A stretch of DNA of 64,000 nucleotides from a virus. Taxonomy: Duplodnaviria > Caudoviricetes. Each line of letters starts with the position of its first letter. Within the stretch, counting starts at the first letter, position 1. Made by a program: the position numbers and the translations under genes. Location of the stretch: the IMG/VR virus record IMGVR_UViG_3300007171_000004, positions 96,001-160,000 of that record; one strand, 5' to 3'. Below are positions 24,681 to 64,000 of this stretch, one piece after another. A model generated the notes under the pieces. It saw only the letters and a list, made by a program, of their open reading frames with translations, made no database searches and was not told where the DNA came from.

Positions 24681-24681
24681 G

Positions 24682-24697: not shown

Positions 24698-24704
24698 TAG
24701 TTCT

Positions 24705-25148: not shown

Positions 25149-25149
25149 T

Positions 25150-25365
25150 CTAGCAATCCTTAGCGATTACATCATCTCCTGTATCGGATGCTTCTGGGTC
25201 AAGAAATACATCAGCAACGACAGGAATTTCCAAAACATCCTTTACTACAATAGATTGAGCTTCAGGCGCATCGGTGGTCTCTTCAACTTCCGACGCTTGT
25301 ACTTCTTCACCTTCTACATCTGTAAACTGTTCAATTCTTCCGGTAGCACGTTTAATCATAGACAT
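25150..25365 (-). CDS. Hypothetical small acidic protein (71 aa)
   Basis: AGGAG RBS. D/E-rich. Coupled between dnaJ and the 147 aa gene. Confidence 0.65.
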   Translation of the reverse strand: MSMIKRATGRIEQFTDVEGEEVQASEVEETTDAPEAQSIVVKDVLEIPVVADVFLDPEASDTGDDVIAKDC

Positions 25366-25376
25366 TGTTTTTTCTC

Positions 25377-26378: not shown

Positions 26379-26386
26379 GTATGTTA

Positions 26387-27064: not shown

Positions 27065-27068
27065 AAAT

Positions 27069-27533: not shown

Positions 27534-27534
27534 A

Positions 27535-27565
27535 GTCCTCTCCTTTTATGCGTGTAGAGAAGGAC
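27535..27565 (-). promoter_or_regulatory. Hairpin able to sequester the signal peptidase RBS
   Basis: On the - strand GTCCTTCTC...GAGAGGAC pairs over the AAGGAGAGGA SD, with a one-base bulge. Confidence 0.5.
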
Positions 27566-27584
27566 ATTTTTGTTTTTTAAGCCC

Positions 27585-28499
27585 TTAATTAAATTTCATA
27601 TTAGCGTATTTAGGGACACCAAATCCCCAATCACCAGTTCTTCCAACTGTGATGTTTTGAGATTCTAATGAAGAAATATCATCTAATCTCTGAAGCATAT
27701 CCTTATAATCACAAATAGGCTTCAAGTTTGGATTTTTTCTTGTCCATGCTAACATCAACGCACAGACTCCAGCAATAAATGGACAAGCTTGTGATGTGCC
27801 ATTTAATTTAGCATATCCATTGTCCTTATAAGTTGAATAAATATCTACTCCAGGAGCAATCGCATCCACTTCTGGACCATGACTTGAAAAATGCGCCATG
27901 TTCCCTCTAGCATCTAAAGCAGCAACTGCAATCACTTCTTCAAATCTAGCTGGATAATTTACAGCTCCAGCGTCATTGCCAGCAGCAGCAATCATAATTA
28001 CCCCAGCATCTGCAGCTCTCTTAATAGCAGTATAGAGTTCTGGAGGAGCAGAAGATGCACCCAAAGACATGCTGATAATATCCACATTGCAATCTACAGC
28101 AGCATTAATTCCAGCAATAATATTATCATAAGATCCATTACCACCATTACCCAAAACCTTGACTGGAAGAATTTTTGCTTTAGGAGCTACACCAACAACG
28201 CCAAAATCATTATTAGCTGCTGCAATGATTCCAGCACAGTGAGTTCCGTGGCCATTCCAGTCCTTATCATCTGATTCACCTGAAAAATTTAAAGCTGGCA
28301 ATAGATTATCTCTTAAATCGGAGTGGTTCCATACACCAGTGTCGAGAACAGCAATTGTAATACCATCGCCCTCAGTATAAGCCCAAGCACCAGGAATATT
28401 GGATTGCATCAAGCCCCAGTCTGTAGTTTGACTGAGAGTTTGCATCACATGAATCGGTTGCATCTCAATATCTGGAATAAACTGAATTTCTTTATCCAT
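27585..28499 (-). CDS. Subtilisin-like serine protease (S8), 304 aa, no signal peptide, very short pro-region
   Basis: IAVLDTG (Asp), HGTHCAG (His), AAAGND (oxyanion Asn), GTSQACP (Ser). GGAG RBS. Confidence 0.95.
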   Translation of the reverse strand: MDKEIQFIPDIEMQPIHVMQTLSQTTDWGLMQSNIPGAWAYTEGDGITIAVLDTGVWNHSDLRDNLLPALNFSGESDDKDWNGHGTHCAGIIAAANNDFGVVGVAPKAKILPVKVLGNGGNGSYDNIIAGINAAVDCNVDIISMSLGASSAPPELYTAIKRAADAGVIMIAAAGNDAGAVNYPARFEEVIAVAALDARGNMAHFSSHGPEVDAIAPGVDIYSTYKDNGYAKLNGTSQACPFIAGVCALMLAWTRKNPNLKPICDYKDMLQRLDDISSLESQNITVGRTGDWGFGVPKYANMKFN

Positions 28500-37243: not shown

Positions 37244-40200
37244 TTAATCCATGAATTTAAGGTCTTCTTCACCCAAGTCAAGTTGTACCGCAAAATCGTT
37301 TACAATCGCTGGTGTTAAGCCTACAGATACAAATAGAATTCCAAACCTAATCTTTGATGCTGGTTCAGAAATTTCAAAGACTTTATTTGGTTCGATGATG
37401 GTATAACTATTGAAATCAAATGAAGCTACAGCATCACTGTTTGTAGTATATCCATATACTATTCTTCCACCATTTGGTATCTCATTACTTGTTAAAAGAC
37501 CTCTTCTAAATTCAGGAGATACTGTCGATAAAGATTCAACACTTGTATCAAATAATTTAGTAAAGAAATAAGATGAATTTGCAGCAATATAAGAAAAACT
37601 TACACCTCTCAATATTGGAGTAGAATTTGGAGAAGATGATACTAATTCTGCCTTAAATTGCATCCATTTACCTGTGATTGTCGAAATATCATAAGTGCCA
37701 ATATGAACACCTGCATTGGCACTATTGCCAATAGTTCCGTAAGAATATGGATCTCCCCAATCAGTAGAGAGTAATCCGCTCTCTGTATCAGAACTCCTCA
37801 AGTAAATTCTAATTTCTGTACCATAATCTAAGCCTGAATCTATTGCCAAGCCAGCTGGTGTCGTAGTATATACTACTAAATCATCCCATCTTGTTAATGT
37901 GGAAATATAAAATGGCTCTGTTGTGTAAAAACCTGATACTGAAATTTTTCTATCTGGCGCATATAAAGGTGAAATATCTTTTGAAACAAATGTTGCTTTA
38001 AGATTCTTGTCAGTACCAACTTGATAAATTTTTCCTTGAGAAATTGAAATTGTTGTAGTTCCTGTTGTAACTGTCGGGTTGCCTAGCTTAATATTGTCAT
38101 AGATATATATATTTTTTTCATATTGATTATTATTTAAATTGACTAAGCTAGGATTTGATGAATGATAATTTCCAGCCAAATCTTTCAATCTAACAAAAAC
38201 TTCTTTGCTTGAACCAGTTACTGAGGAAGAATCGAATTCATAGACGAATCCATCTTTAAATGTCGCATATGTATTTGTTGAGAATCTAAAGATATCTGAA
38301 GCTGAATTTCTTCTAAATAAATTAGTATTTGGGATTACAACATATGTACTTCCATTTGATAGCTTCCATGCTAATTCAATAGAAGGAGTTGAAACTGTAT
38401 CCACGAATCCAATAATTTTAATTTTTGTTAATTTAGTACTTATTAAAGATTTAGTAAAAACAGTGTTACTTACTACAGTTTTATTTGTCCAAGAATCTGC
38501 TACTAAAATATCATCCAAATAAACTCTAGCTCCAATATTTGTAGCCAATCTAAAATCATAAGAATCAGATTGATCAGATTTGATATAACCTTCAATTGTG
38601 ATATTATAATATGAAGTAGATGATAATGGGTTAGTATCTAGATTTGTAAAATTAATATTGTTTGCAAAAACAGAAATTTTTTGAATATAGTTATCAAAAA
38701 GCTTATATGAATCTAGTGTAGAAGATCGATATGTAATATCAATACCATTATTATTAGAATCTGGATATGCAACAGAACTAAAAGATTTATCAGATAACTT
38801 GTAACCAATAGCTTCTTTATCCGCAGTAAACCATACATATCCGCCAGTTAAATCGTCATTAATTCCGTAAAAATACCCATTATCAGTTTCATACAATCTG
38901 CTCCAAGAGACTGGTTTGTTATTAGTGTCAAATGATAATGAATAAATATCTCCAGTTCTAAATCCTGCAAAAACTAGATTAGCTGCCGAAGAATAATATA
39001 AAACATCAATTTGATCATAATCAGACTGAAGAGCTAAAGACCAATCTCTGTTATCAAATTTATAAACAGCTGCATCTCCGAACCCATCTTTTCCACTTAA
39101 ACCAACATATAAATTTGCATAAGCAGCTGTTAAAGTAGAAACTTCTAACTCGACAAATTCTTTTCTTTTATCAATAGAAGTTCCACTCCATGAATACACA
39201 GCAGCCTTAAAGGTTTGATTTGAACGTGTACCTATCCAAAGCATGCCCCTATATGAAGCTAAAGATGTAATAGGAAGAGTATATATTGGTGTTGAGTCCA
39301 AGGAAGACACTGGTGGATTGATATATGCCCATGAAGTTCCTGATGCTGATTCATAAACAAGACCATTATTTGTTCCAGCATATAGCTTGCCATTATGATT
39401 TACCAAACTTGTAATTTCAACGTTTGCAGCTAATGTTAATACAGTTGATAAAACATCGCTTGAATAATTATAAATTTTATTATTTGCAACAGATACAATT
39501 TTAGATCCAAAAGCCAAAGATTTAGTAAAGGGACTATCAGATGATGTAGCTTTTTCTGTCCAAATTCTAGGAGTATTAGAAAGTAACCAATCAAAAGTTG
39601 AAATGCCTTCTTCAAAGCTTACCCAACCCTCAAGATCAGCAGATGGAAAATCTGTTACATCTCTAAAGTCTGAATAATGAGATGCTTGAAAACTTGAAAT
39701 TCCAGAGAGATCATCATATCCTGAAATTGTAATCTTTCCTAAATTAGAACCTGCATAATAATCGCCTCTATATGAAATTCTAACATTTGAAATTTGAACA
39801 GGATCTTTAAACGTATACTTCAAAAAATCATAAGAGTATGGATCAGCAATAGTTCTATAAACGGATAACCAATCAGAATCTGGAGTCAATTTAACTTCCA
39901 CAGAATATTGCTTAGGTGTCGATGCTGTTGCTCCAATAATCATAGACGCAACTGAAGGATATGTAGCAACGCCTTGACTAGAAACTGAAATTGGATCAAA
40001 AGATTTGTTTAAATATTGAACTCCACCATAACCAATAATTTCATAAGAACTTTCATTTTCAGAACCACCAAAATTATTAGCAACTCTAATTGGATTATCT
40101 AACATATCATAAGCAACTGTAGTATCAGACAAGGAAGATGAATTTTCTCCTTCTAAAATGTAGTATGCTCTACCAGAACTTTTTTGCCATGTAAGGTTAT

Positions 40201-40909
40201 CAGAAGAATATGCAAAATTATTATTAGAATCTGTTTGAGAAGCTATGTAAATACTAGCGTTATCTGAAGTCGGAGGAAATACTTCAATTTCAATTACAAA
40301 CCAATATTTAGTTGATTGAGACAGAGTATATACTACATCAAATTTATAATCTGCCAAAGTGTCTGTCAGAGTCGCAAATGTAAATGAAGAAGATGATGTT
40401 GCAATAATACTACTTGGATTACCGGCACTATCAGAGTAAATGTAAAACTTAAATCCATTTGCAGTGTTAGAAATTGTGCCGCTTTTCTTTAACTTTACTG
40501 TTACAGATTTAATTTCTTGCTCTATATTTGGTGTATAACTCCAGGCTTCATATCTCTTAGTTAAAGTTCTTACATTAGTGGTTGTGTTGTCGGAAGATGA
40601 AGAAGAAGCAAATGCAGAAAATTGATGTACGAATATACCACCAGAATCTTCATTTTGATTAATAATAACATATCCTTGGGGAGCTTTGGTATCAAGAAAA
40701 ACGCTAGCTTTAGGATATGTGTATGCTTTCTCAAGAACTTCGCATTTTGGAAGTGCAGATGGAGAGTCTATCCAACTATAAATATCAAAAAAGTTGCTTG
40801 GTTGAACAGTTAATGTAGATACTTCATTTATCTCAGGTGTAGAAGTAATATTTACATCTTTAGCTTTTTTGGACTTTCTGGTTTTCTTATCTTGAGACAT
40901 ATTAGACAA
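37244..40909 (-). CDS. Large virion protein (1221 aa) with beta-propeller and PA14 domain
   Basis: ITSL..HNGKLYAGT / ITSLASYRGMLWIGT propeller blades. PA14-like IEGYIK.....YDFRL....GARVYLDD...IELAWK. VFVRLKDLAGN Ig-like strand. Confidence 0.7.
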   Translation of the reverse strand: MSNMSQDKKTRKSKKAKDVNITSTPEINEVSTLTVQPSNFFDIYSWIDSPSALPKCEVLEKAYTYPKASVFLDTKAPQGYVIINQNEDSGGIFVHQFSAFASSSSSDNTTTNVRTLTKRYEAWSYTPNIEQEIKSVTVKLKKSGTISNTANGFKFYIYSDSAGNPSSIIATSSSSFTFATLTDTLADYKFDVVYTLSQSTKYWFVIEIEVFPPTSDNASIYIASQTDSNNNFAYSSDNLTWQKSSGRAYYILEGENSSSLSDTTVAYDMLDNPIRVANNFGGSENESSYEIIGYGGVQYLNKSFDPISVSSQGVATYPSVASMIIGATASTPKQYSVEVKLTPDSDWLSVYRTIADPYSYDFLKYTFKDPVQISNVRISYRGDYYAGSNLGKITISGYDDLSGISSFQASHYSDFRDVTDFPSADLEGWVSFEEGISTFDWLLSNTPRIWTEKATSSDSPFTKSLAFGSKIVSVANNKIYNYSSDVLSTVLTLAANVEITSLVNHNGKLYAGTNNGLVYESASGTSWAYINPPVSSLDSTPIYTLPITSLASYRGMLWIGTRSNQTFKAAVYSWSGTSIDKRKEFVELEVSTLTAAYANLYVGLSGKDGFGDAAVYKFDNRDWSLALQSDYDQIDVLYYSSAANLVFAGFRTGDIYSLSFDTNNKPVSWSRLYETDNGYFYGINDDLTGGYVWFTADKEAIGYKLSDKSFSSVAYPDSNNNGIDITYRSSTLDSYKLFDNYIQKISVFANNINFTNLDTNPLSSTSYYNITIEGYIKSDQSDSYDFRLATNIGARVYLDDILVADSWTNKTVVSNTVFTKSLISTKLTKIKIIGFVDTVSTPSIELAWKLSNGSTYVVIPNTNLFRRNSASDIFRFSTNTYATFKDGFVYEFDSSSVTGSSKEVFVRLKDLAGNYHSSNPSLVNLNNNQYEKNIYIYDNIKLGNPTVTTGTTTISISQGKIYQVGTDKNLKATFVSKDISPLYAPDRKISVSGFYTTEPFYISTLTRWDDLVVYTTTPAGLAIDSGLDYGTEIRIYLRSSDTESGLLSTDWGDPYSYGTIGNSANAGVHIGTYDISTITGKWMQFKAELVSSSPNSTPILRGVSFSYIAANSSYFFTKLFDTSVESLSTVSPEFRRGLLTSNEIPNGGRIVYGYTTNSDAVASFDFNSYTIIEPNKVFEISEPASKIRFGILFVSVGLTPAIVNDFAVQLDLGEEDLKFMD

Positions 40910-51700: not shown

Positions 51701-52606
51701 GTAAGGTTGAGAAGTACTATTCGGCACATAAAAGATAGCATTAATTTGAGTAGCTTCAATATTAGATAATGTGCCTAATCTTTTTAAAGCAAGTACAATT
51801 TTAAGTCTATTGGCTAAAGAAATATCTGATAATCTATAGTTATCTGGTAAAGAAGTAAGTGAAGCTAAAAGCGTATCAATTTGACTATGAGATAGACTTC
51901 CAATATTAGATAAAGTACTATGGTCAATCTGTGGTAATCTATCTGCGGACAGGCTACCTGATGTAACTTTGTCCAAATCCAAGTTCTCAATATAATCTCC
52001 TGAGAGTTTTCCTCTTACATGTTTTGATAAATCAATAGGGCTTGGATTTGTTGCACCACCAATATGCTTATGCTTATTTACAATCCCAGATATAGTTCCA
52101 AATAAACTAATATCTACTCTTCCATATTCTGCTGTATTATAGATTGTTAATGTATCTGGGTCTGTAGATCTATCTACTAATACTGCTCCAAGACCAATAT
52201 AATTATCTGGATCGTTAAGTTGTACTAATGATGCCATAAATTCTACAGTTTTTGCTGAAGGGGTGGTAGCATCTTCTATGGCATATAAGTAAAATAGTGC
52301 AGATGTTGCTCCAGCTGGCAAAGCTGGTAATGCAAAAGTAACATTTGTAGTTGTTTCTGCATATTTCCAAGAAACATGACCTCGACCAGAAGTAATTAAA
52401 ACATTATTATAATCATTTGGGATCGAAAGAATATACCAAGATGGATTAGCTGGGTCTTCATCGAGAACACCATTTCCAAAAATTGAATATAAAGCTAAAG
52501 TCTGTGTATCAATAGCTTTAAATCTTAATTCATCTAAATCTAATTCTGCTCCAATATCTTGATTAGGTTCAAAATATCCAAGCTTATATATTGGTGTCTT
52601 TCCCAT
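48770..52606 (-). CDS. Large virion protein (1278 aa): N-terminus paralogous to the 2894 aa protein, RIGFGST module, C-terminal NHL-like beta-propeller
   Basis: KTPIYK..Y.E vs KRTSIYKY.Y.E; KHKHIGG..NPS.I vs RHVHLGN...PS.I; GKLSG..I.....GSLSADR...IDH. LLFADTKNDRVVEFD blades. Confidence 0.7.
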   Translation of the reverse strand: MGKTPIYKLGYFEPNQDIGAELDLDELRFKAIDTQTLALYSIFGNGVLDEDPANPSWYILSIPNDYNNVLITSGRGHVSWKYAETTTNVTFALPALPAGATSALFYLYAIEDATTPSAKTVEFMASLVQLNDPDNYIGLGAVLVDRSTDPDTLTIYNTAEYGRVDISLFGTISGIVNKHKHIGGATNPSPIDLSKHVRGKLSGDYIENLDLDKVTSGSLSADRLPQIDHSTLSNIGSLSHSQIDTLLASLTSLPDNYRLSDISLANRLKIVLALKRLGTLSNIEATQINAIFYVPNSTSQPYEATGIPAGINQATINRVNKRLEGTNSSTISSDNIVWNTYEDFDRAWKAAQARVIANSPLSENIAITAPKIYSTGSVSTINTVTITGSGTSWSSLILPARIGFGSTNPSAITTWFNISSITNNTTLVLTVSASGQSTGNYVIEQTSGVNGSITVDKTLKYLGILDTNLQDTKWKDGYLFTDKKTKTSVVPPPPPVLSAPAYYNQFNEDYDVARYFYNQFSTTQDWTERSRIGIGFGFNVASVPGNVYVYLTLSSGGTAKSIMSDGVATTINISTPVQILSKDNTDPKTRLYVEKNLSEFGLTEAQLASVAGIGFVWDTAEFWDGNELNFYLLHPRTDEIIAISTQSSSINAAMNTLPDATSSVFIFNDTLFNTYATLVFRLDTNSTTTTYDQVLWDATIPSGTSLRVYTRTANVESSLGSYLTNEITQGTWTVSPSSNTGRYFDIIVNLYSNSSKTLAPTLDRLVLAYNGLGSSALKIWNKYETDISTAQTGWFSTAKEYENITFGSNTTDSDFPGKTVNFLTISNTAEIGKWRYLRKNNALQSSLLDASDEVVVEDGIDALSLSSYQSPVQVWRGYSEYGFLEPKYYESVGTSLLFADTKNDRVVEFDSLGAITKIYQGNLRLKRETRDFVLLNSYYNPNVGKLYINFSQYVSITSAANSTLVSGKQSIKLSETGVSVVLFNPIDGKSATIVASFNTTLKTKINSWGSDVKLIVQNGAFSYVGSDGGTLTDGTTTTTDICQALNFIEISSNTSLAGEGKCLSGISQYTETISDFADFNKDGQIITSSLYGPDQTLLTASNTLIINVLVGNIYMTNILEPIHVTTNKYGYYIVSNISDDSIVALNSSGETVWSVPSTVCSFVENKLGGAIELSSENLLVALPSPASDNAGRILVLNRISDNTILTSINVNGDAIKAIEDPSYDSYWVIVDDVKNDGKQSRLIKLNSSGELTYSWGVGTLTHPTGLKMLGNSTLVVSE

Positions 52607-52830
52607 TAGTCTTCTTGATCCGGTTTATTTTTACTAGTTACTTTTTCTACACCCCAGCGAGAAAATCCCCATCTTACAATATTTTCTTCTGATAAAGTTT
52701 CTGGTTCCAAAATTACTTCTGATTTCAAATAAATTGATGCCTCAGATCTAGGTAAAGGTCTAGGCTCCATTTGTTTTTGGTTGTGTATTTGATAATTAAT
52801 TATATCTGTTAAACTTCTAAAGTCTGGCAA
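52606..52830 (-). CDS. Hypothetical small protein (74 aa)
   Basis: Coupled on both sides (TAATG overlap at 52606). Contains RWGFSRWG. Confidence 0.55.
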   Translation of the reverse strand: MPDFRSLTDIINYQIHNQKQMEPRPLPRSEASIYLKSEVILEPETLSEENIVRWGFSRWGVEKVTSKNKPDQED

Positions 52831-52831: not shown

Positions 52832-55735
52832 TTATGTTCCTACGTTCGCATCTTTAGCGCCATTTATTTGTGCTGTAATTACATTTGTTTTTTTATCAAT
52901 TATATAAGTACATCCAGTATATAAGTATCTATCAGTAATTAATGGTTCCTGATTGCCTATAAATGTCTGAATTGCAAAAGTTCCATATAAAGTTAATGGC
53001 TTACTTACAATACATGTAAATTTTATATCTGAAAAAGTATTTCTTATTATTCTTTTTACTTGTTTGAAATAAATATTTAAACCTGTATAATCTTGCAAAA
53101 ATCCTGATGTGTCTCTTACTAAATGAAATTTCCTATAGCCTACATAGCCAATTTTGGAAGGTACTATTGTTTTATCATCTACACAATCATTCAATCTTTG
53201 TATTCCTAATTCTGTAAGAGCTGTATCATTAATTGAAACAGATCCATCATAAAATTCATTTCTTCCAATAACTGTAGAATCAAAGCCCTGTCCATACATT
53301 TCAAGCCCAGCAGCTAGATTATTAGTTTGTGATGTAATTGTATAGCTACTTGATAAAACTCCATGCCAATTCTTAGGAAATCTAGAGTCAAATTCAGATC
53401 CAGCAGAAAAATCAACTCCAAATGTTTCTCTTTCTCCAATAAAATAAAGAACATCACTAAAAGAAGGCTCATATCTCCAAGTTAATTGAAAATATCTTAA
53501 CTCTGCATTCCAAATAAAAGATGGGAACCCTCTGTAGTTCAAACATTGATTTAAAATACTATTGATTTTAGGAAGAATAAATTCATCACTTCTTGCACTA
53601 AAGTTTCCAGCATCAGGAACACTATATTGACCATAAGATACTTGATTTCTTAAAGCTAATGTATATTCTGAAAATGTAGGATCTTCTGAAGATTCTTGAA
53701 TAAAGAATTGATTTTGAAAACCTGCAGAGAGTATGATTCTTTTAATAATGTCTAAATACTGCATACCTCCAAATTCAATATATGGAATAGTAAAGCGAGT
53801 TTCTTCTAAGACAGAAGTTACATCTTTAAGGCTAATAGAAATCGTGGATCCAGTAGCTGATCTTACTACAGTTACGCTATCATTTATTCCTTGGTAATAT
53901 GTGTAAAGTTCGTCATATCCAGCTTTGATGGTAAATAATAAGACATTGTTCTCAATAGCTTCTAAAATTCTTGCCCCACGTTCAGTAGTATCAATATTTT
54001 TAAGTGTTAACGTTGCAGATCCTGTTATTAAACTATGATTCTGATTTTTACTAGAGTAAATGATATTTACGCTATCAAAATATGGACTTAAATCTCCCCA
54101 ATTTAAATCAACAATACCAGAATCTTTAATTTCAGAAACTGGAGTATTAAGAACAATTTTACGTAAGCAAGGACCCTCGATAGTTGTGTTCCATTGAAAA
54201 TATCCAGTAACAGAAACAGTATTTTTTTTGGTATTTATTGATTTTGATAATTCATAATATCTTATGGTACTTAAATCACTGCTTCGCTTATCTATGAAAG
54301 CTTGTGTGTCAGAAAATTGATCTGTTATTTCAGAATATTGTTCTAAATCCTTAAATTTATGTCTATTGAAAGCTTCATTTACTTTCTCGGCATTAAAAGA
54401 CTCAGTATATTGCTCTTGTGTGCCTTTGAAAGAAAACTTATACTTGTTCTTCAAAGCGTCAAAATCTAATTTACTACTCTTGAGAAACGAATCAGTATCA
54501 AAATTTTTAAAAGCAATTGGAGCATATGTGTAAGAGCAATTAATATTGTTAAACTGGATTTTAATTTTATTTATTTTGTCCGCAGAATGGATAATTTTCT
54601 CATTATAATTTGAATCAGGAGAAATGTTTAACGGAAACAATGTATCCCATTTTGAAGGATTATCATCTGTGCCAATCATTAAGTTAGATCCAACAAAATA
54701 CATGTGAATCTTAAACAAATTACTATCAATAGAAAAATTTAATGGTGGAGCTTCAACAATTGCGCCGACTAAAGGATGATAATATTTTAAGACAATTTTA
54801 GTGTCAACAATTTCTATTCTATAAAAAGAAATTACTGGAAGCAAATTTGAAAATGTAATATCACCTAATTCAACTACAATTCCAGAAACCGAACTAACTG
54901 AATTTGGATTATTATTTTTGGAACTTGCAGATCTATCAAATGTTAAAGTACAACCACTAAAACCATTTGTATTGATTGATTCAGACCTGCGATAAACTTG
55001 TCCATCATTCCATAAAGCACTGTAAGAAAGCTTAGCTCCATTGTTTGCTAAATCTTGCTTTACAGAAAATAGTCTAGTCATAATGCAAGATGAATTTATA
55101 GCAGATACATAAATTTTAGCTGAACCATCGTTTGTATAGACTTGTCTTACAGATGAACCTTTATAAGTTGGTCCATATTTGTATCCATGATATTTAATTA
55201 TTTGAACATCAGAAGATGAAGTTATTCCTTCTTGATACCAAACATTTGGGCTAACAACAGGATAAATAACGTCTGCAAACTTTGAATTCTTTCGAGTCAA
55301 AACAGTAGGAATGTCTGTAACTTCGTTAAGTTGTAACTGATCTGTGTAAATGCTCGAATATCTTGCAGTTAAATCCAAATCAGATGAATAATTTACAGTA
55401 TAATTTGGACCCTTGATGAGATTGAAAACCGGATGTACATCATCAGGAGCTAATGCTCCATAGACAAATGTACATTCAGGTGCACCAATGTTAGTATTAA
55501 TTGTTGGTAAATACGTCCCAGCATTAGAATTGCTATAAACTAAACCTGTAGTTGCAATTTTTCTATTACCTTTATTGTCTATAGCATATGAAGATTTTCT
55601 ACCTAAAACAAACTTCTCTCCACCATCAAATACTGCAGATACATTACCGCCAGGATAAGTACCGTCTTGTGGATAGTATAATGCTGAAACAGTACAACTA
55701 ATCTTTAATTCTCTTGTGTCATCTAAAAGTGGCAT
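52832..55735 (-). CDS. Putative baseplate hub / tail protein (967 aa)
   Basis: C-terminal half has a hub-like pattern: GSATLTLKN...TIKAGY....YQG..DSV.V.RS.TG..ISISLKD....L...GMQYLDIIKRI..SAG. TAATG-coupled. Confidence 0.5.
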   Translation of the reverse strand: MPLLDDTRELKISCTVSALYYPQDGTYPGGNVSAVFDGGEKFVLGRKSSYAIDNKGNRKIATTGLVYSNSNAGTYLPTINTNIGAPECTFVYGALAPDDVHPVFNLIKGPNYTVNYSSDLDLTARYSSIYTDQLQLNEVTDIPTVLTRKNSKFADVIYPVVSPNVWYQEGITSSSDVQIIKYHGYKYGPTYKGSSVRQVYTNDGSAKIYVSAINSSCIMTRLFSVKQDLANNGAKLSYSALWNDGQVYRRSESINTNGFSGCTLTFDRSASSKNNNPNSVSSVSGIVVELGDITFSNLLPVISFYRIEIVDTKIVLKYYHPLVGAIVEAPPLNFSIDSNLFKIHMYFVGSNLMIGTDDNPSKWDTLFPLNISPDSNYNEKIIHSADKINKIKIQFNNINCSYTYAPIAFKNFDTDSFLKSSKLDFDALKNKYKFSFKGTQEQYTESFNAEKVNEAFNRHKFKDLEQYSEITDQFSDTQAFIDKRSSDLSTIRYYELSKSINTKKNTVSVTGYFQWNTTIEGPCLRKIVLNTPVSEIKDSGIVDLNWGDLSPYFDSVNIIYSSKNQNHSLITGSATLTLKNIDTTERGARILEAIENNVLLFTIKAGYDELYTYYQGINDSVTVVRSATGSTISISLKDVTSVLEETRFTIPYIEFGGMQYLDIIKRIILSAGFQNQFFIQESSEDPTFSEYTLALRNQVSYGQYSVPDAGNFSARSDEFILPKINSILNQCLNYRGFPSFIWNAELRYFQLTWRYEPSFSDVLYFIGERETFGVDFSAGSEFDSRFPKNWHGVLSSSYTITSQTNNLAAGLEMYGQGFDSTVIGRNEFYDGSVSINDTALTELGIQRLNDCVDDKTIVPSKIGYVGYRKFHLVRDTSGFLQDYTGLNIYFKQVKRIIRNTFSDIKFTCIVSKPLTLYGTFAIQTFIGNQEPLITDRYLYTGCTYIIDKKTNVITAQINGAKDANVGT

Positions 55736-58700
55736 TATGCATATCCTATCGAATTATTAACATTCCCATCAGCAAATAATATTCTGGATTTTAATTTGTC
55801 TTGTGAATCTTTATACCAAATATGTAGTTCACCTTGTTTACCGGGATTGTTAGAAATTAGTAACCCAGGCTTTTGAGAAGGAACATTGGTTTCAACTTCT
55901 CCAGATTGCTTGACAGAAATATAGCCTATATTTACCATAGCTTCAAGGGCGCTATCTAAACTATTATTTGCCGAATCGAAAGTTCTGCTACCTGCCACAA
56001 GATTCAAAATAGGTGCAATAGATATAATTTCTTGCGACCCATGTAAGTAATCGTGATTAGGATTTATTATAGCTACAAAGATTCTACCTGCACACCAAAA
56101 GGCTAAACAATATGTATTTTCGATATGATTATATTGCAAATTTAATCCTTTGATTTTTAATGTAGAAGGTATTAATATGCCGGTGTTTTTCATCTCAATA
56201 ATAGGAAACTGTTCAGATGGAATTTCATTATTTACAGTTTTGCCGTAAATAGATCCGGGATTGCTAGCAGAAGAATAGCAGACAAATACATTTCCATATT
56301 TATCAAGTGCAATTCCAGGAAAAGTATTTTCTGGAGAATCAGAATCTTGAGAATCTGCATGAATCAAAAAATTATCATTCTCAGATGTTTTTACTCCAGC
56401 AATCCATACAAATCTATTTTCAGAAACACCATTTGAAAAAACAACAGTTGGATTAGCAAGACTATAAACTACTTTATTGTTTTCTAAAATTCCAACAATA
56501 TGAGTTAAATCATTAATCATATTATTAGCTGTGCTTGCAAAATTAAGACTGTTCAATATTTTAGATGAATTATTAAATGAGTTGTCTTCTGAATCAAAAC
56601 CTATTCTAGACCAACTTCTCTCTCTGCCAGCTGAAAAATTATAATATCCATCAACCGAATTTATCTGTTCGCCAGTTTGACCTAATAATAAACCTAAAGA
56701 TTTATTTCCGTAAAGAGAGTGATTGTTATTATTCATGGTAAAAAGCTGTGGATTATTACCTTTTATTTCAACAGTAGCTTCACCATTCATACCAGCAAGA
56801 TTAGTTTTGGTAAAGAAATTTAATTCGTTTGAATTAGTGGAAAAATATTTGACATAATTTCTGCCATCAGAGAATGTAATAGCTGTAGAAGGATCATCAA
56901 AAGCCACATGAGTAGAAAATGACAAATTATCTTCTACTGCAGTGACCGATATCTCACCAATTTCAGCTTCTCCGGGTACAGTCCTAAACCAGAAATCTTT
57001 GTTTGTATATCCTAATGCTCCAGATCTTACTTCAGTAGAATTCGGCATTGAGAGCTGCCAAGTAGGGGAGTATAGACAACCACTTACATTTAGACCGTCT
57101 GTGATAGTAGTTATCATTGTATCTTTTAAATCATCATCTAAAATAAACCAACAACTTGAATCGTCAAAGGCTATTCCTGGCACTAAATCTAAATCTTCAT
57201 AAAATCCTGGAGAACCCAATTTAGAATCAGAAGCATCTAAATCTAAAAATTTAACTGTATGAGAAGTTATTTCAATAGATTCTAATTCATAAAACAGCTC
57301 TGTAAATCCAAATTCAGTTCTAATATCGCCTAGAGATTTATCAGCAAATAAAGCATATGGATATAAATTAATTCTTAATATTAATTGTGAATTATTATTG
57401 CCTGTAAGAAATGGGAATGCAACATCAAATTTAAAATCATAAACTTTGTTTAAATAACCGGACTTATATATTCTCTCGACAACATTGCCATCTAAAGAAA
57501 TTGAGAATATCTCATATGAAATCCTGAAGTTTAGAAAAGTCTCTATCTTCATTCCTAAATTTGATGGTTTTATTGAAATTTGCCATGTTCCAATGTCAAC
57601 TTTAGCTGAATTTAATGGTCTTATTAATGTGCAAAAGTCAAATATAAAAGATAGTTTGGGATTAAAAGATTCAGCAAAAGAATCAAAATATAATCTTACC
57701 AAAGGTCTTTCATTAACTTCGTCTTGCATAATCAATAAATCTTGGAATGCATTATCAGAATTAGTCTTGGCTATACCTTTATATAAAATATATTCCCCAA
57801 CTTCTGTGCCGTTAACGAGACTTTTAGACACAACAAAAGGTTCAGGTAATTTTGTATATTTAGCATTATCAAACTCAGAAGCTTTTCTTGGATATAAAGT
57901 TGCTGTAATTGCTCTTTGTATAGGAGTTTGTATACCATCACTAGTCGAAGATAAATCAAAAACTACAGTTGGGGTATAAAGCAATTCTTTTTCACTAAAC
58001 TTCTTATTTTTATATTCATCATTAAGTGAAGAAATTGCATATATCCCAACACAAAGTTTATAAGATGTTGCTCCTGAAACTTGAAATCCTTTAACTTCTG
58101 CTGCATATCTAACCAGATCAATAAAAGTAAAATCAGAAGAAATCGAGGATGATACAAAAACTTCATCTAAAGAAGAAGGCTTACCTATTTGAGCCTGAGT
58201 TATATTATTACTATATTTGAAAATAATTTCATTAACATCTCTATATTGGTGAAAATTAGCGGTATTTGGAACAAAATCTTTTGGAACAAACCATATTCTA
58301 GCAATAATATGTGTGTTTGCCATATTTAATTTATCTATAACCTTCGCAGTTACTTTAAATGTATATGCACCTTGAGAAGCTGAAATTGAGGGTTCATAGC
58401 TGAATTTATCATCGCTAACAAAAAACAAAATAGGATCTAAGGCGTTAATAGCGTTCATGCTAAAGTCACCAGATTTATTTGGATTTATTAAAAGTGGTTT
58501 ACCCGAATGCTCCGAAGAATCTGTTGAACTATACAAAGTTTCTTCATTCATAACCAGAGCTGAATTATAATGATCCAGCTCAGGAGTGATAGATTCTTGA
58601 TATGTAGAGCCATCTGGGTATCTGACAAAGACTCTAAATTTTATATCATTAAAAGAAAAGCCTGTACTATTAATAAATCTATAAATATAAGGGGCAACGA

Positions 58701-59937
58701 AATTCTCAGTATTTCCTAAAGTTGATGTAATCGTGTGAACTAAAGACCATTCATCACTTTCTTTTGGGGCAACTTGAATTTGTAAAGAAGACCAATCTTC
58801 ATTTATATTTAATTTTGGAAGTGATAATATTCTTGATTTAGAATAAACACTTTGATTCAAAAAAGATAGATTTAACTGCTTGCTTTCAGCTATTGTGCTA
58901 ATAATTCTTGTGAAGTATAATCCAGATCCTGACAATTGCCCCATACTTAAAATTGCTAATGGATCTAATACAGTTACAGGCCAGGAAAATATTAAAAATC
59001 TCAAAGAAACTGAATGTGCAAATCCAGGACTATTAAATGTTTGCGTTGGATCAAAAAGTTTTATATGAAGATTAGGTCGTTTAAAATCTATCGAAGTTGG
59101 AAAATATAATGACCTGACTGTTGGATTATAATTAAATAAAGTAGGAAATGCATAACTCAAAACATTACATGGAACTTGCTCATCTCTTAAATTAACTTTC
59201 TGAGCGTCAAATAGGTAAATTTTATATATAGAAAGTCTTACAGAAGGAGCATTTCCTAGTACTTTAATTTGAATATTTGATACTTCTGCAAAATCTGTTG
59301 TAACAACTCCACTCCCAAATCTAATAGTTGTCTCCCTTTGAGTTAATAATGTTGCATCAGAATTTCTAAGACCAGTAGCTTTTAATTCAAGTTTATCCTT
59401 ATTAGAATCAATTTTTGGATCAGGGTATTCTTTACCATCAATCAAAACAGTACCTAAAACATACTTATTCATATCTACATTAAAAGAAGCTTCAGGATTA
59501 TTTCTATTGTTTATAATCTCTTGATAATCAGCTGTATCAACTATAGAAGATAATTTTGGATCAAATGGAGATATAGATAGAGTGTATACAATCTTAATTG
59601 CCGATAATCTAGATTTAGAATTTAAGTCAATCGAATATAAAGAATTAATTCCATCAACTGTAAATGGAGTATTTGTAGCAAACTTTGTGAATGATGCTGG
59701 ATTTGCTAACAATCTAAAAGCATTCACAAAAGGAAAATCAAATGAATTCTTACTTGACTTCAACTCACCTTTGTAAGAAACTTTGACACTTTTATCAACA
59801 ACATCATTTCTGAACTTGCCATTTTCCAGACCCAAAGTTAAAAATCCCGTAGGTATTGAAGCACCAGTAGCCAAAGTTGTTGGATACCAATTAAAATTAC
59901 CTAAAAACGGTTTTCTTGTAGGATTTTCAAATGGCAT
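55735..59937 (-). CDS. Large hypothetical virion protein (1400 aa), beta-rich, possible C-terminal propeller
   Basis: Long ORF coupled within the structural block. PGIALDKYGNVFVCY-type blades near the C-terminus. Confidence 0.55.
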   Translation of the reverse strand: MPFENPTRKPFLGNFNWYPTTLATGASIPTGFLTLGLENGKFRNDVVDKSVKVSYKGELKSSKNSFDFPFVNAFRLLANPASFTKFATNTPFTVDGINSLYSIDLNSKSRLSAIKIVYTLSISPFDPKLSSIVDTADYQEIINNRNNPEASFNVDMNKYVLGTVLIDGKEYPDPKIDSNKDKLELKATGLRNSDATLLTQRETTIRFGSGVVTTDFAEVSNIQIKVLGNAPSVRLSIYKIYLFDAQKVNLRDEQVPCNVLSYAFPTLFNYNPTVRSLYFPTSIDFKRPNLHIKLFDPTQTFNSPGFAHSVSLRFLIFSWPVTVLDPLAILSMGQLSGSGLYFTRIISTIAESKQLNLSFLNQSVYSKSRILSLPKLNINEDWSSLQIQVAPKESDEWSLVHTITSTLGNTENFVAPYIYRFINSTGFSFNDIKFRVFVRYPDGSTYQESITPELDHYNSALVMNEETLYSSTDSSEHSGKPLLINPNKSGDFSMNAINALDPILFFVSDDKFSYEPSISASQGAYTFKVTAKVIDKLNMANTHIIARIWFVPKDFVPNTANFHQYRDVNEIIFKYSNNITQAQIGKPSSLDEVFVSSSISSDFTFIDLVRYAAEVKGFQVSGATSYKLCVGIYAISSLNDEYKNKKFSEKELLYTPTVVFDLSSTSDGIQTPIQRAITATLYPRKASEFDNAKYTKLPEPFVVSKSLVNGTEVGEYILYKGIAKTNSDNAFQDLLIMQDEVNERPLVRLYFDSFAESFNPKLSFIFDFCTLIRPLNSAKVDIGTWQISIKPSNLGMKIETFLNFRISYEIFSISLDGNVVERIYKSGYLNKVYDFKFDVAFPFLTGNNNSQLILRINLYPYALFADKSLGDIRTEFGFTELFYELESIEITSHTVKFLDLDASDSKLGSPGFYEDLDLVPGIAFDDSSCWFILDDDLKDTMITTITDGLNVSGCLYSPTWQLSMPNSTEVRSGALGYTNKDFWFRTVPGEAEIGEISVTAVEDNLSFSTHVAFDDPSTAITFSDGRNYVKYFSTNSNELNFFTKTNLAGMNGEATVEIKGNNPQLFTMNNNNHSLYGNKSLGLLLGQTGEQINSVDGYYNFSAGRERSWSRIGFDSEDNSFNNSSKILNSLNFASTANNMINDLTHIVGILENNKVVYSLANPTVVFSNGVSENRFVWIAGVKTSENDNFLIHADSQDSDSPENTFPGIALDKYGNVFVCYSSASNPGSIYGKTVNNEIPSEQFPIIEMKNTGILIPSTLKIKGLNLQYNHIENTYCLAFWCAGRIFVAIINPNHDYLHGSQEIISIAPILNLVAGSRTFDSANNSLDSALEAMVNIGYISVKQSGEVETNVPSQKPGLLISNNPGKQGELHIWYKDSQDKLKSRILFADGNVNNSIGYA

Positions 59938-59938: not shown

Positions 59939-62900
59939 TTATGATCTCATAAGTTTATTAATCGAATCTTGAATATAATTCAGTATTCTCTTATTTACAT
60001 CTGTTGACAAGACTTCAAGCTTTAAATTGGTCTTTTTCTCTATCTCTTGAATGATTGTCTCTTTATATATCTTAAACTGATTCTTTGTGACAAACTGTTC
60101 AACTTGCTTATCATTATTTTCTTTTAATTTTTTCTCAATAACGTTGTCAACAATCTGCATAACTCTTTCAACTTCTTTTTGATTATTAACAGATGTATTC
60201 ATAAATGTTGTATTGAAACTACTATCGCCAGATTTTGAAATTAATTGAGTCATGAAAGTATCATTCTTTTCAAATAATCTGTTAATACCTTGCATGAGAA
60301 TATTTTCAACATATTCTTCGGATTCAATATTATTATTTGTTATATTATCCTGTTTCTTACTAAATGGAGATTTACCATTACCATAATTATTTGTAGAGTA
60401 ATTATTAACTGTCTCATTTTTAATTAGATCCACATACTTATCCAAGGAGCCTAAAATTATTTGATCTTGAATGTCACTATAAGGAGAAGCAGAATTTATA
60501 TATGACTGGCTTTGATCGTATCTTATTGTTTCTAAAAGACTATTATTGACGTAAGAATTTTGCTGATTGTAAATATTATTAGTTGATCTTGAGTTAGATG
60601 AATTATTAGGCTTAGAAGGTGAGTAATATTTTCCTGTAAGTCTATCTATTCTTAATTGCTCTTGGGTAACAACTGGATTTGAATTATTATAAATATTAGA
60701 GAAATTAGCTTGCTCTTGATTATATTCTGTAAAGTTTCTAGTATTTTGAGTATTATTTGTCTCATTATATTCATTCACAGCATTATCATAATAAGTTTCA
60801 GTATATAAATTATCAGAACTAAAGAATTCATTTGATCCAGATTTCAAGTCCACATAATTAACTGGTTTATTCTCTGTGACATTTAAGCTATTCTGATATC
60901 TAGACAAATGAGATTCAAAACTATCTTTATTAAAATTATTGTTTACATTAATAATTTTTCTTTTGCTTTTTCTATTTGAAGTATTATTTGTAACTGAAGA
61001 AGATTTTGTATCCCCTTCTATATTTTGATTATTGAAAGTTTGGTTTGTAGTAGAATTTACATCTGAATAATTTTGAGTATTTAAAGTTTCTTGGTTATAT
61101 ACAGTTGAAGAATCATTATTTACTGTAGATGATTGTGTGTTGTATTCATTATTTTCTGTGGACGAATAGTTAGCAGAATCATTTTGATAATATTCTTCTG
61201 TTTCTAAAGTAATCTGCTCTTCAGAGATGTTTACATTTGTATCTCCATCTTCGTAATTGGAATTTTCAGAATTATATGTTGTATTATTATTCTCATTAGA
61301 TACATTATTTGAAGATTGATTATAACTCTGATTATTATTAGTAGTATTACCCTCTACGTTTTGATTAGATACATTTACACTCGAAACTGTCTGATCATTG
61401 CTAATATTATCAACATTAACATTGTTTTGGAAATTATAACTTTCAGTAACAAGTTGCTCAGAAGAATTTACTATATTATTTGATTGAACATTATTAAGAC
61501 TATTTGATATGTTAGTCTGAGAACTGTTATTTGTGTTATTGTTTTGAATACTAGCATTATTTGTTTCTATATTTACATTTTCTTCAGAACTATTTGACTC
61601 ATTATTAGTAACAGAATTTACATTTTGGCTTTGAGAGTTATAGATATCAAAATTATCAGTATTGCCTTCATAATATTCTTCAGTCTGTAAAGTACTCTGA
61701 TTATTGCTTACGCTTGAAGAGATATTATTATCAGTATTTGTAATATCTTGTTTTAATTCATTAGTGACATTCTGGTTATTGGATTCTGCAGATGAGTTAT
61801 TATAAACATTGTTGGTTTCAGAATTATATCCATTGGTTACAGTAGAACTTAAATTAGTTACCTCTGTCTGATTAACAATATTCTGACTATTATCTTGTGT
61901 ATTAAATGCAGTATTTTCTACATCATATTGTTCAGTATTTAAAGTTTCTTGATTATTGACAACAGAATCATTTGAGTTAATATTTAAAGATGTGCTATTA
62001 TTTACTACAGACTCATTAATATTAGACTGTGTATTATTTTCTATATTAGTATTATTCGTATTTGATTCTTGACTGCTAATGTATTCTTGGTTATTTTCAG
62101 AACTATAGGCATCTTGCTGACTATTTGAATTGTTTGTAGTATTCTGATTATATGTGTTATTGTCTGTGGAATTTATATTCTGATTATTGACAATATTTTC
62201 GGAATTAGTTGTTTGATTTAAGACTGTATTAGAATCTGATGAAATATTATTCTGAGTACTATTAAAGCTTTCAGAAGAGCTATAATTTTCAGTATTTAAT
62301 GTCTCTTGATTAATTAAATTTTGGTTAGACTCATTATTAACTGTCTCAAATTCCATGTTAGTAAGATTTTGAGAGTTGTTGATATTTTGGCTATTATTGT
62401 CTTGAGTATAGTTTTCAGTATTTAATGTCTGTTGATAGCTCTCGTTGAAAGTGTTATTTTGGTCCTTAAATGAGTTATTTTCCTCAGTATTAACCGTTTG
62501 ATTGTTGATGTTAAGATTGTCTGTATTTTGTTCATTAATTGTGCTATTTATCTGGACATTTTGATTCTGATTATTTATATCTGTCTGTTCATAAGAAGTA
62601 GACTCATTAATATTAAATTCATTTGAGTTTTGATTATTAATATTGCTTACAGATGAAGTATTATTGATATTATTGCCCGACGATGTGTAATTTACTTCCT
62701 CACTATTTTGATTGATATTTGTATTATTGCTACTTTGACTGAGATCTAGATTTGTATAGTTTTCTGTATTTAAAGTCTCTTGATTAACGATATTTTCTTG
62801 TTCAATTTCAGAGCTATTACTTACATTATTAGATTGGTTATTAATTTCCGTAGAATAATTATAATTTTCTTGAGATAGATAATTTTCTGTATTTAAAGTT

Positions 62901-64000
62901 TCTTGACTACTAAAATTTTCGTACTTATTTTCATTATTTGTATTCTGACTATTGTAATTTTGTTCAATATCGTTAGATTCAATATTTTCAGTATTTACAT
63001 TTGTCTCGTTATAATTTGATTCAGTATTAGATGTAGAGTTTTGAACTGAGGAATTATTTGAAGAGTTGGCAATATTAGTTGTAGAATTTTGCTCTTGATT
63101 AACATTCTGATTAAAAGTCTCAGAAGTTGTCTCGTTAAAATTTTGAGTATTTTCTTGGCTATTAGTTACATTGCTCGTAGTTGCATCATTTTGTGTATAT
63201 TGTTCAGAATTATAGATGTTTTCAGCACTATTATATGATTCTGTATTCAATGTCTCTTGAGTAAAGTTATTCTCTTCATAAGCATTTGATAAATTGTTTT
63301 CAGAAATATTTACTGTACTAGAATTTTGATTATTGATATTATTGCTATTATTGTTATCAGTGTAGTTTTCAGTTGCCAAAGTCTCATAATTATTGGTTTC
63401 AGATTGAGAATTTTCTGAATTAAATGTTTGAGAATTTTCCTGATTAATTAAAGACTCCTGATTATTAACATTAGTCGTACTAGAGTTATTTTGAATATTT
63501 GTTTCAGATTCAAAGATTTCTTGATTAGATTGATTTGTCTGATTATTATTTTGTTGATTATAATTATTTTCAATATTATTATTTGAAACGTTATTATCAA
63601 TATTATTTTCAGAACTAATCTTATTATTTACATTTTGAGTTGAAGAGACATTATTTTCTGATATAGAGCTATTTGAGACATCTAGATTATTAAAATTTTG
63701 TAGGCTATCTCCATTGATTGTTGAAGAATAATTTTCAGTGTTTAATGTCTCTTGAGAATCGATAAAAGTATTAGATTCATTATTAGAAACATTATTTGAT
63801 ACATTTGTTTCATTAAATGCTAAAGATTCATTGGATACAAATTCGTTATTCTCTTCATTTTCGTTTTTATTTACAGTTGTTTGATTAGAAGAAATAGATG
63901 TATTGTTTTGGTTCTGATTATTTTCCAAACTAGAATTTACAACATTATCATTAAAAACGGATGTAGATTCTTCATTCATGGAAACAGAAGAAGAGTCATT
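59939..64000 (-). CDS. Asn/Ser/Glu/Gln/Thr-rich low-complexity protein (at least 1346 aa, probably 5'-truncated) with a helical C-terminal region
   Basis: The frame stays open from 63979 to the window edge (NDSSSVS) and no RBS precedes the ATG. About 1000 aa contain no P, R, H, C or W. Helical C-terminal ~120 aa. Confidence 0.8.
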   Translation of the reverse strand, partial: NDSSSVSMNEESTSVFNDNVVNSSLENNQNQNNTSISSNQTTVNKNENEENNEFVSNESLAFNETNVSNNVSNNESNTFIDSQETLNTENYSSTINGDSLQNFNNLDVSNSSISENNVSSTQNVNNKISSENNIDNNVSNNNIENNYNQQNNNQTNQSNQEIFESETNIQNNSSTTNVNNQESLINQENSQTFNSENSQSETNNYETLATENYTDNNNSNNINNQNSSTVNISENNLSNAYEENNFTQETLNTESYNSAENIYNSEQYTQNDATTSNVTNSQENTQNFNETTSETFNQNVNQEQNSTTNIANSSNNSSVQNSTSNTESNYNETNVNTENIESNDIEQNYNSQNTNNENKYENFSSQETLNTENYLSQENYNYSTEINNQSNNVSNSSEIEQENIVNQETLNTENYTNLDLSQSSNNTNINQNSEEVNYTSSGNNINNTSSVSNINNQNSNEFNINESTSYEQTDINNQNQNVQINSTINEQNTDNLNINNQTVNTEENNSFKDQNNTFNESYQQTLNTENYTQDNNSQNINNSQNLTNMEFETVNNESNQNLINQETLNTENYSSSESFNSTQNNISSDSNTVLNQTTNSENIVNNQNINSTDNNTYNQNTTNNSNSQQDAYSSENNQEYISSQESNTNNTNIENNTQSNINESVVNNSTSLNINSNDSVVNNQETLNTEQYDVENTAFNTQDNSQNIVNQTEVTNLSSTVTNGYNSETNNVYNNSSAESNNQNVTNELKQDITNTDNNISSSVSNNQSTLQTEEYYEGNTDNFDIYNSQSQNVNSVTNNESNSSEENVNIETNNASIQNNNTNNSSQTNISNSLNNVQSNNIVNSSEQLVTESYNFQNNVNVDNISNDQTVSSVNVSNQNVEGNTTNNNQSYNQSSNNVSNENNNTTYNSENSNYEDGDTNVNISEEQITLETEEYYQNDSANYSSTENNEYNTQSSTVNNDSSTVYNQETLNTQNYSDVNSTTNQTFNNQNIEGDTKSSSVTNNTSNRKSKRKIINVNNNFNKDSFESHLSRYQNSLNVTENKPVNYVDLKSGSNEFFSSDNLYTETYYDNAVNEYNETNNTQNTRNFTEYNQEQANFSNIYNNSNPVVTQEQLRIDRLTGKYYSPSKPNNSSNSRSTNNIYNQQNSYVNNSLLETIRYDQSQSYINSASPYSDIQDQIILGSLDKYVDLIKNETVNNYSTNNYGNGKSPFSKKQDNITNNNIESEEYVENILMQGINRLFEKNDTFMTQLISKSGDSSFNTTFMNTSVNNQKEVERVMQIVDNVIEKKLKENNDKQVEQFVTKNQFKIYKETIIQEIEKKTNLKLEVLSTDVNKRILNYIQDSINKLMRS
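61060..63760 (-). repeat. Dispersed protein motif QETLNTENY: 8 near-exact copies and about 4 degenerate copies
   Basis: Near-exact DNA copies near 61077, 61934, 62293, 62420, 62767, 62889, 63243 and 63738 (+ strand GT(A/G)TT(T/C)AA(A/T)GT(T/C)T(C/G)TTG) differ mostly at synonymous positions. Confidence 0.9.

Follow-up and report, generated by a model that had tools for sequence, protein, structure and literature searches.

A giant asparagine-rich phage protein punctuated by a recurring motif, tentatively read as a disordered tape measure

Here we describe a giant gene at the edge of a 64,000-nucleotide (nt) stretch of Caudoviricetes DNA (the window), which covers positions 96,001 to 160,000 (G000:C1:96001-160000) of the 300.5-kb IMG/VR record IMGVR_UViG_3300007171_000004, estimated to be 84% complete. 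The gene encodes a protein of 2231 amino acids (aa) in which a short motif recurs 20 times along an acidic, asparagine-rich tract, at distances that cluster at multiples of about 40 aa and are kept among relatives. Our findings tentatively favor a model where this is a tape-measure-class protein of the tail lumen, with a disordered sticker-and-spacer chain as its ruler; lumen location, binding partner, and ruler function we infer from anatomy, evolution, and position. The gene is real and unusual, and no known family matches its product (Pfam, PHROG, and PDB gave no match for its domains); if it is a tape measure, it would be a variant form of a known class.

From open reading frame (ORF) lists that include the neighboring DNA, the whole gene lies at G000:C1:155939-162634 on the minus strand (window-equivalent 59939-66634). 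The initial annotation, made from the window alone, had described an ORF that the window cuts, the true start being 2634 nt past its edge. It had also placed the gene at the head of its operon, which is off by one: a 665-aa gene (P0002) ends 3 nt ahead of the giant gene's ATG. The start of a 1400-aa gene abuts the giant gene's stop, and no terminator-like site was found between the three. Given the close upstream gene and the lack of such sites, the giant gene is the second of a minus-strand operon that continues with genes of 1400, 967, 74, 1278, 317, 2279, 1221, and 2894 aa.

Anatomy of the protein and spacing of its motif

The giant protein consists of an N-terminal region of ordinary composition (aa 1 to about 200), a tract of about 1680 aa (aa 201-1884), and a C-terminal region of about 350 aa (aa 1885-2231) that is less biased in composition and probably helical, judging by the model of its sister-clade counterpart. 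The tract is dominated by N (29%), S (15%), T (11%), E (10%), and Q (7%), D and E together reaching 14% and N and Q 37%; it lacks P, R, C, and W, holds 2 H, and has no homopolymer longer than 4. Its net charge is -216, it falls on the disordered side of the charge-hydropathy plot, and NNN runs are rarer than expected (12 vs. 41). The initial annotation's account of a low-complexity composition holds for the 1006 in-window residues (N 298, S 158, T 112, E 102, Q 86, V 56, I 48, Y 39, D 32; no P, R, H, C, or W), and the basic cluster RKSKRK that it saw closing the tract is present. A partial copy of the gene on a 2966-bp contig from a close relative (L006) breaks frame in the A-rich stretch encoding this cluster (L006:540-650; KKSKSYQCK, then a stop). 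The break reflects either an error in sequencing a homopolymer or a genuine frameshift where tract and C-terminal domain meet. No enzyme domain was found in the giant protein.

The recurring motif can be written phi-x-x-(Q/E)-E-T-L-N-T-E-N-Y. A position matrix built from the clear copies locates 20 of them, starting at aa 301, 342, 381, 453, 580, 721, and 845 and at the 13 positions listed in table 1; the copy at aa 342 is marginal, as it scores 9.5, close to the 95th percentile of shuffles, where the other copies reach 19-32. The core LxTExY occurs 17 times in the tract, whereas 5000 shuffles gave a mean of 0.02 and a maximum of 1. The 12 in-window copies counted in the initial annotation are those of the tract, and one more lies in the C-terminal region. 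Taken over 105 copies from seven homologues, the consensus reads [IVF]-x-[NS]-[QE]-E-T-L-N-T-E-N-Y-[SYT]; here L, T, and Y are invariant because the search pattern demanded them, and the E of T-E stands at 92% under a pattern that admitted no residue but E or Q. In 18 of 19 copies, a hydrophobic residue precedes the motif L by 4-7 positions. Two related copies occur in the N-terminal region, LPTDRY (aa 48) and LKTDEY (aa 85), with LPLERY and VKTDDY as their sister-clade counterparts. Identical motif residues share a codon in 601 of 932 cases, where codon usage predicts 516, and Tandem Repeats Finder reported no long DNA repeat in the gene. With synonymous codons near random and no DNA tandem repeats, the copies are not recent DNA repeats and the motif is kept by selection on the protein, as the initial annotation had proposed.

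Elsewhere in the 300-kb genome the motif is absent above chance: LxT[DE]xY occurs twice among the 86,000 residues of the other proteins, where 2.7 matches are expected, and no profile match scored 18 or more. One of these two matches lies near the C-terminus of the 967-aa operon protein (window 52832-55735, minus strand), where PLITDRYLYTG resembles ALPTDRYTAG of the giant protein's N-terminal region; since it is one of only two such matches, the resemblance may be due to chance. Across IMG/VR, the sole match of the motif DNA pattern was one exact copy of ETLNTENY in an unrelated phage structural protein of about 1840 aa (L014:7665-7688, minus strand; IMGVR_UViG_3300030389_003520), which we take as a chance occurrence.

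Successive motifs are separated by 41, 39, 72, 127, 141, 124, 116, 122, 43, 118, 41, 116, 42, 119, 84, 79, 82, 41, and 92 aa. These distances group around multiples of about 40 aa (resultant 0.71; 0.26% of random placements gave a higher value; p about 0.003), the poor fits being 72, 141, and 92. Linkers resemble one another no more than their composition predicts (median z 0.5).

Homologues, selection, and two length classes

Homologues were found with the neighboring 1400-aa gene as anchor and a degenerate DNA pattern for the motif, giving six further copies; the pattern scan of metagenomes returned 54 loci, 50 of them with a single match, and only the four multi-match loci were inspected. 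Four copies are short, with 1759 aa (L011 and L059) or 1760 aa (L010 and L039), and two are long but cut by a contig end, with at least 1980 aa (L023) and at least 949 aa (L050). An exhaustive HMMER search with the C-terminal region yielded only three fragments, all from close relatives. Scans of IMG/VR for close relatives with the C-terminal region and with the 665-aa and 1400-aa neighbors returned nothing, and no homologue emerged from an N-terminal alignment scan, a degenerate DNA pattern for the RRYSPxKTDxYSGNRP block, or a word-indexed search with the N-terminal region.

The entire ORF is under purifying selection, with the linkers about twice as relaxed as the remainder. Between our genome (G000) and L010, identity and the ratio of nonsynonymous to synonymous divergence (dN/dS) are 94% and 0.07 in the N-terminal region, 89% and 0.09 in the motifs, 83% and 0.08 in the C-terminal region, and 65% and 0.18 in the linkers; across comparisons the linkers range over 63-66% and 0.13-0.25. 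Orthologous motif spacings nonetheless agree within 2 aa across all seven sequences, at synonymous divergence (dS) above 1. The insertions and deletions (indels) involve either a single unit of 36-40 aa or a single 508-aa block (aa 462-969). The short forms fuse the left flank of the motif at aa 453 to the right flank of that at aa 961, which puts the junction within the motif. The block, specific to the long forms, evolves under purifying selection as well (dN/dS 0.23-0.25).

By identity, sub-lineage A comprises two long forms (G000 and L050) and two short ones (L011 and L059), sub-lineage B the short L010 and L039, and sub-lineage C the long L023. Length therefore does not track the sequence tree, which points to repeated deletion or to recombinational exchange. 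The short forms of lineage A carry an extra unit of about 40 aa and those of lineage B one of about 38 aa elsewhere, leading to totals of 1759 and 1760 aa; both long lineages are without either unit, and their first-to-last motif distances differ by 2 aa.

The initial annotation had judged an assembly artifact unlikely, and the same architecture in six further copies bears this out, as does a 5.5-kb contig from a freshwater run of another study that is collinear with the long form through the 508-aa block. A single metagenome assembly yielded both long L023 and short L011, and words of the gene of this uncultured phage are present in runs of at least 11 aquatic studies, with lakes and estuaries as sources. 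The short-form joint was not seen in the four sequencing runs examined, where the joints found had sides of at most 27 letters and are not credible. No RNA run was seen among those that contain the gene; one (X19) is labeled RNA-Seq but is probably DNA.

A sister clade, defined by phages whose 1400-aa homologue is 31-32% identical, keeps the gene order unchanged (650, 1164, 1451, 993, 75, 1191, 312, and 2286 aa). The other operon proteins differ by at most 7% in length between the clades (665/650, 1400/1451, 967/993, 74/75, 1278/1191, 317/312, and 2279/2286, this clade first), whereas the giant protein differs twofold. Its counterpart of 1164 aa (P0016), for which Pfam and PHROG gave no match, shares the N-terminal 165 aa (45% identity, expectation value (E) 4e-43). 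The final 46 aa also align end to end, weakly (hhalign E 0.0097, low probability), and each protein terminates in L/M-R-S. The middle of P0016, about 900 aa, is unrelated to the tract: N amounts to 10%, so it is not asparagine-rich, and the motif is absent. In its model, P0016 is mostly coil over the N-terminal 240 residues and, from about residue 250 onward, all-alpha without a confident tertiary fold (predicted local distance difference test, pLDDT, 33). Ten sister-clade clusters all have 1163-1164 aa. The initial annotation had looked to homologues that lose the motif and keep the tract as evidence against its view of the protein; close homologues keep both, and the distant one has neither.

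A disordered tape measure and its rivals

Tape measures are understood as helical rulers with about 1.5 angstrom per residue, and known helical rulers spend about 26-27 residues per tube ring. In the model that we tentatively favor, the conserved N-terminal region and C-terminal end would anchor the protein at either end of the tail tube or hub, and the middle would be the length-bearing part. The usual alpha-helical ruler would have been exchanged in this clade for an acidic disordered chain of 1200-1700 aa, with about 20 docking motifs of 12-14 residues placed one, two, or three units of about 40 residues apart. Each motif may bind a periodic partner, a tail-tube ring or a tail-assembly chaperone, with the asparagine-rich linkers acting as entropic spacers. 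The expected end-to-end distance of a 40-residue disordered linker is about 4 nm, roughly one tube ring by our estimate. If each unit matched one ring, the long-form tract would reach across about 41 rings and the short-form tract across about 30. With the presumably helical C-terminal region added, tails of about 170-220 nm are estimated, against about 140 nm for the helical middle of the sister protein. The unfolded polyanion could be expelled through the tube ahead of the DNA. A fuller version, in which tail length is set by the number and spacing of the units on tube rings or chaperones and the two rulers (2231 and 1760 aa) give two tail lengths that switch by recombination inside a motif, seems to us unlikely as a whole.

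Several observations are consistent with a ruler. Conserved ends and a repeat-bearing middle that changes length in units are the pattern of tape measures, and it is the pattern found here. Motif spacing holds within 2 aa although the linkers drift to 63-66% identity, and the protein comes in two discrete lengths, 2231 and 1759/1760 aa. The sister counterpart is apparently all-alpha without a confident tertiary fold, as usual for tape measures. As to position, the gene comes second in a closely coupled operon whose giant virion proteins carry PA14 and fibre-type domains, beside a head-tail adaptor block. Thus, of the three readings put forward in the initial annotation, that of an acidic ruler fits best (conserved ends and variable middle, spacing of about 40 aa, kept linker lengths, whole-unit indels, two lengths); that of a multivalent scaffold is half right, and that of a polyprotein finds no support.

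A number of results weigh against the tape-measure model. Neither the N- and C-terminal parts nor the sister protein show similarity to tape-measure families in Pfam or PHROG, and the tract is predicted to be disordered, not helical. Hydrophobic, membrane-active, or lytic segments, which are frequent though not universal in tape measures, are absent (maximum Kyte-Doolittle 19-residue mean 0.73). Degenerate in-phase motifs were not found within the 116-141-aa linkers (p 0.58), and, given a length gap of 27% between phages that are 90% identical, close relatives would have tails of two different lengths. Profile and fold searches confirmed no gene for a sheath, tube, chaperone, gp25, or hub; nothing in the genome matched the Pfam families of sheath, tube, gp25, gpD, or tape measure (PF10145 likewise). 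The argument from tail position consequently rests on the adaptor and gene order. Finally, the 665-aa neighbor, helical and of conserved length (665 vs. 650 aa), is equally placed and an alternative tape-measure candidate. It is the lack of tape-measure homology, the unconfirmed tail genes, the nonhelical tract, and this adjacent candidate that keep our preference tentative.

The most serious rival, itself doubtful, builds on that neighbor. Here the 665-aa protein would be the true tape measure and the giant protein a pilot or ejection protein associated with the tail or hub and expelled along with the DNA or ahead of it, with the tract as a polyanionic tether or decoy whose length is of minor importance. 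Such a role would account for the charge and the disorder. P0002 is helical in its Atlas model, 25% identical to and collinear with the sister clade's 650-aa protein, and at the head of the operon; the length of the giant protein, on the other hand, differs twofold from clade to clade and by 27% among members of one sub-lineage, and its net charge is -216. Yet linker lengths and class totals are kept to 1-2 aa at dS above 1, and the short lineages converge on 1759/1760 aa, which would not be expected if length were free; likewise, the quantized spacing calls for a periodic partner.

A surface fibre or whisker, possibly glycosylated, appears improbable. In such a structure the tract, rich in Asn, Ser, and Thr, would form a mucin-like brush and its motifs would serve as attachment or folding nuclei, an arrangement that would suit the PA14 and fibre-type domains of the operon neighbors and the excess of N-x-S/T in the tract (163 vs. 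129 expected, z 4.0). This excess, however, is nonspecific, N-x-[QE] being enriched more (z 5.4), and arises because NN is avoided. Moreover, the middle of the sister protein is modeled as helical, not as a brush, and the giant protein has no signal peptide and no beta-rich fibre domain. The nearby candidate glycosyltransferases lack Pfam support (the three genes at L005:11988-14864, plus strand, have no match at E ≤ 0.01, leaving that identity unsupported).

Slightly less probable again is the polyprotein, in which a phage protease would cut at each motif, for example after Glu, to release about 20 acidic peptides. T4-type and phiKZ-type head proteases do cleave after Glu, the motif's T-E was counted as invariant, and the phage encodes S8, S26, and S1 proteases along with a head maturation protease. 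The motif, however, recurs in no other protein of the genome above chance, the gene lies outside the head module, quantized spacing and kept linker lengths would have no role, and the released peptides would be the least conserved parts. The initial annotation had pointed to proteases encoded downstream: S8, S26, and S1 proteases are confirmed, but more than 31 kb downstream of the giant gene and beside DnaJ.

That the tract is a tolerated, AT-driven low-complexity expansion without function of its own, only ends and motifs being of importance, we regard as a slim chance. The region does have the lowest guanine plus cytosine content in the window (26% vs. about 31%), and the sister clade lives without the tract; yet the linkers are under purifying selection (dN/dS 0.13-0.25), avoid homopolymer runs, and, whole units aside, contain almost no indels. 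Least likely of all is a prion-like, condensate-forming scaffold that organizes an assembly compartment. The sticker-and-spacer anatomy proposed in the initial annotation is real (motif dN/dS 0.09, linkers 0.18), and N and Q make up 37% of a Pro-free tract with regularly placed Tyr, but prion-like domains are depleted in charged residues, whereas 14% Asp/Glu with almost no basic residues (net charge -216) is unlike such self-condensing domains; NNN runs are also depleted and the gene sits in a virion operon.

Characterized tape measures carry periodic, aromatic-marked repeats of 11 or 18 aa (Trp/Phe) between essential ends, and the repeats can be deleted, which shortens the tail (PMC5099701). 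Proteins of the type of the tape measure of lactococcal phage TP901-1 (Belcaid et al. 2011; Mahony et al. 2016, PMC5099701) resemble the giant protein in their conserved ends, a middle of aromatic-marked units that are gained and lost, and, apparently, a position ahead of baseplate genes, their repeats having been proposed to dock on the assembly chaperone. Their units, on the other hand, are helical, 11 or 18 aa long, and marked by Trp/Phe, whereas those of the giant protein are about 40 aa, with only a 12-14-aa motif conserved and the rest acidic, asparagine-rich, and predicted to be disordered; hydrophobic segments and profile similarity are lacking. With lambda gpH and T4 gp29 it shares what may be a gene position between tail and baseplate functions, a length that varies among relatives, and, in its sister homologue, an all-alpha model of low confidence; yet no sequence similarity was found and its unit is about 40 residues of nonhelical chain. 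Like sticker-and-spacer or prion-like Q/N domains, it sets short Tyr motifs in Q/N/S-rich, Pro-poor, faster-evolving linkers, but it is strongly acidic, avoids Asn runs, and has conserved and quantized linker lengths, which argues for a fixed periodic partner rather than self-association. The internal proteins and peptides of T4 and the inner-body proteins of phiKZ are likewise large, acidic, virion-associated, and marked by short recurring Glu motifs; their cleavage motifs, however, recur in many head proteins encoded among head genes, whereas ours is confined to one gene of a tail/fibre operon. Finally, the Asn-rich inserts of Plasmodium and Dictyostelium are similar in being Asn-dominated within a genome of about 30% GC, but the giant protein differs in its longest run of 4, purifying selection, conserved lengths, and embedded motifs.

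If the model holds, a disordered, motif-punctuated ruler would be a second physical way of measuring length. It would also explain why no tape measure was recognized in a lineage of large freshwater phages bearing DnaK and DnaJ ("moraphage"), for which it was reported that one could not be found (PMC12619734). That lineage has 25 published genomes, and Flavobacteriia have been suggested as its hosts (PMC12619734). The agreement of our phage with it is circumstantial only: aquatic sources, a 300-kb genome, and DnaK and DnaJ genes. Even if not a ruler, the protein stands as a clear example from nature of a very long disordered chain that conserves the lengths of its linkers and not their sequences; the helical sister counterpart offers a comparison, and the natural dimorphism of long and short forms is testable.

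Neighboring genes and feature coordinates

The in-window features of the giant gene and its closest neighbors are collected in table 1.

Table 1. Positions of giant-gene features and operon neighbors in the window
Feature	Positions in window	Strand	Basis or remark
Giant gene, in-window part (aa 879-2231 plus stop)	59939-64000	-	ORF lists, translation, purifying selection along whole length
Tract, in-window part (aa 879-1884), 1006 residues	60983-64000	-	Composition, charge, charge-hydropathy plot
QETLNTENY, aa 961	63728-63754	-	Right-hand junction of the 508-aa long/short block
YETLATENY, aa 1083	63362-63388	-	
QETLNTESY, aa 1126	63233-63259	-	
QETLNTENY, aa 1244	62879-62905	-	
QETLNTENY, aa 1285	62756-62782	-	
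QQTLNTENY, aa 1401	62408-62434	-	
QETLNTENY, aa 1443	62282-62308	-	
QETLNTEQY, aa 1562	61925-61951	-	
QSTLQTEEY, aa 1646	61673-61699	-	
SEQLVTESY, aa 1725	61436-61462	-	
QITLETEEY, aa 1807	61190-61216	-	
QETLNTQNY, aa 1848	61067-61093	-	
Motif-like SDNLYTETY, aa 1940	60791-60817	-	In C-terminal region
Basic cluster RKSKRK (aa 1888-1893), tract end	60956-60973	-	Sequence; kept in homologues
C-terminal region (aa 1885-2231)	59942-60982	-	83-94% identity among close homologues
1400-aa gene	55735-59937	-	ORF list; synteny anchor for finding homologues
967-aa virion gene	52832-55735	-	Hub candidate from gene order only
74-aa ORF between the 967-aa and 1278-aa genes	52606-52830	-	Position and length kept in both clades (74/75 aa)

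The 967-aa protein as a hub is neither confirmed nor excluded by its AlphaFold model (pLDDT 34), whose Foldseek matches to lectin-like jelly-roll domains (template modeling score 0.1-0.25) are uninterpretable. No usable lead came from ESM Atlas look-ups of the sister protein, of the 665-aa protein, or of a neck-block protein of 795 aa. Among the other operon products, those of 2279 and 2894 aa share a type of domain, about 100 aa long, that often occurs in tail-fibre and virion proteins, and the 1221-aa protein (window 37244-40909, minus strand) has a PA14 carbohydrate-binding-type domain. A PA14 domain is also seen in a 1299-aa protein of the virion module (L012:3072-6971, plus strand). The S8, S26, and S1 proteases, DnaJ, a UvsW-type helicase, and DnaK are encoded at window 20874-28499 (Pfam).

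P0002 (L005:7639-9636, minus strand; G000:C1:162638-164635) has a basic tail, RRKKKKRTI, and contains FIRVAA and FIKVAK. Past the window and adjacent to the operon, a plus-strand block holds a Mu gp36-type head-tail adaptor; beyond it lie the portal and a 1396-aa protein with a head-maturation-protease N-terminus. In the latter (L013:3221-7408, minus strand; G000:C1:189220-193407) the first 240 residues or so match phrog_18299, and the other 1150 aa or so have no match. The portal, of 801 aa (L013:7492-9894, minus strand), is extended at its C-terminus (aa 677-795) by a stretch with a match to phrog_503 and a weak one to an HNH endonuclease family. In L010, an 87%-identity relative, an IS605 OrfB/TnpB (Cas12f-like) gene lies near the operon (L010:1-1157, minus strand), and the matching site holds a 351-aa gene in G000 and L011.

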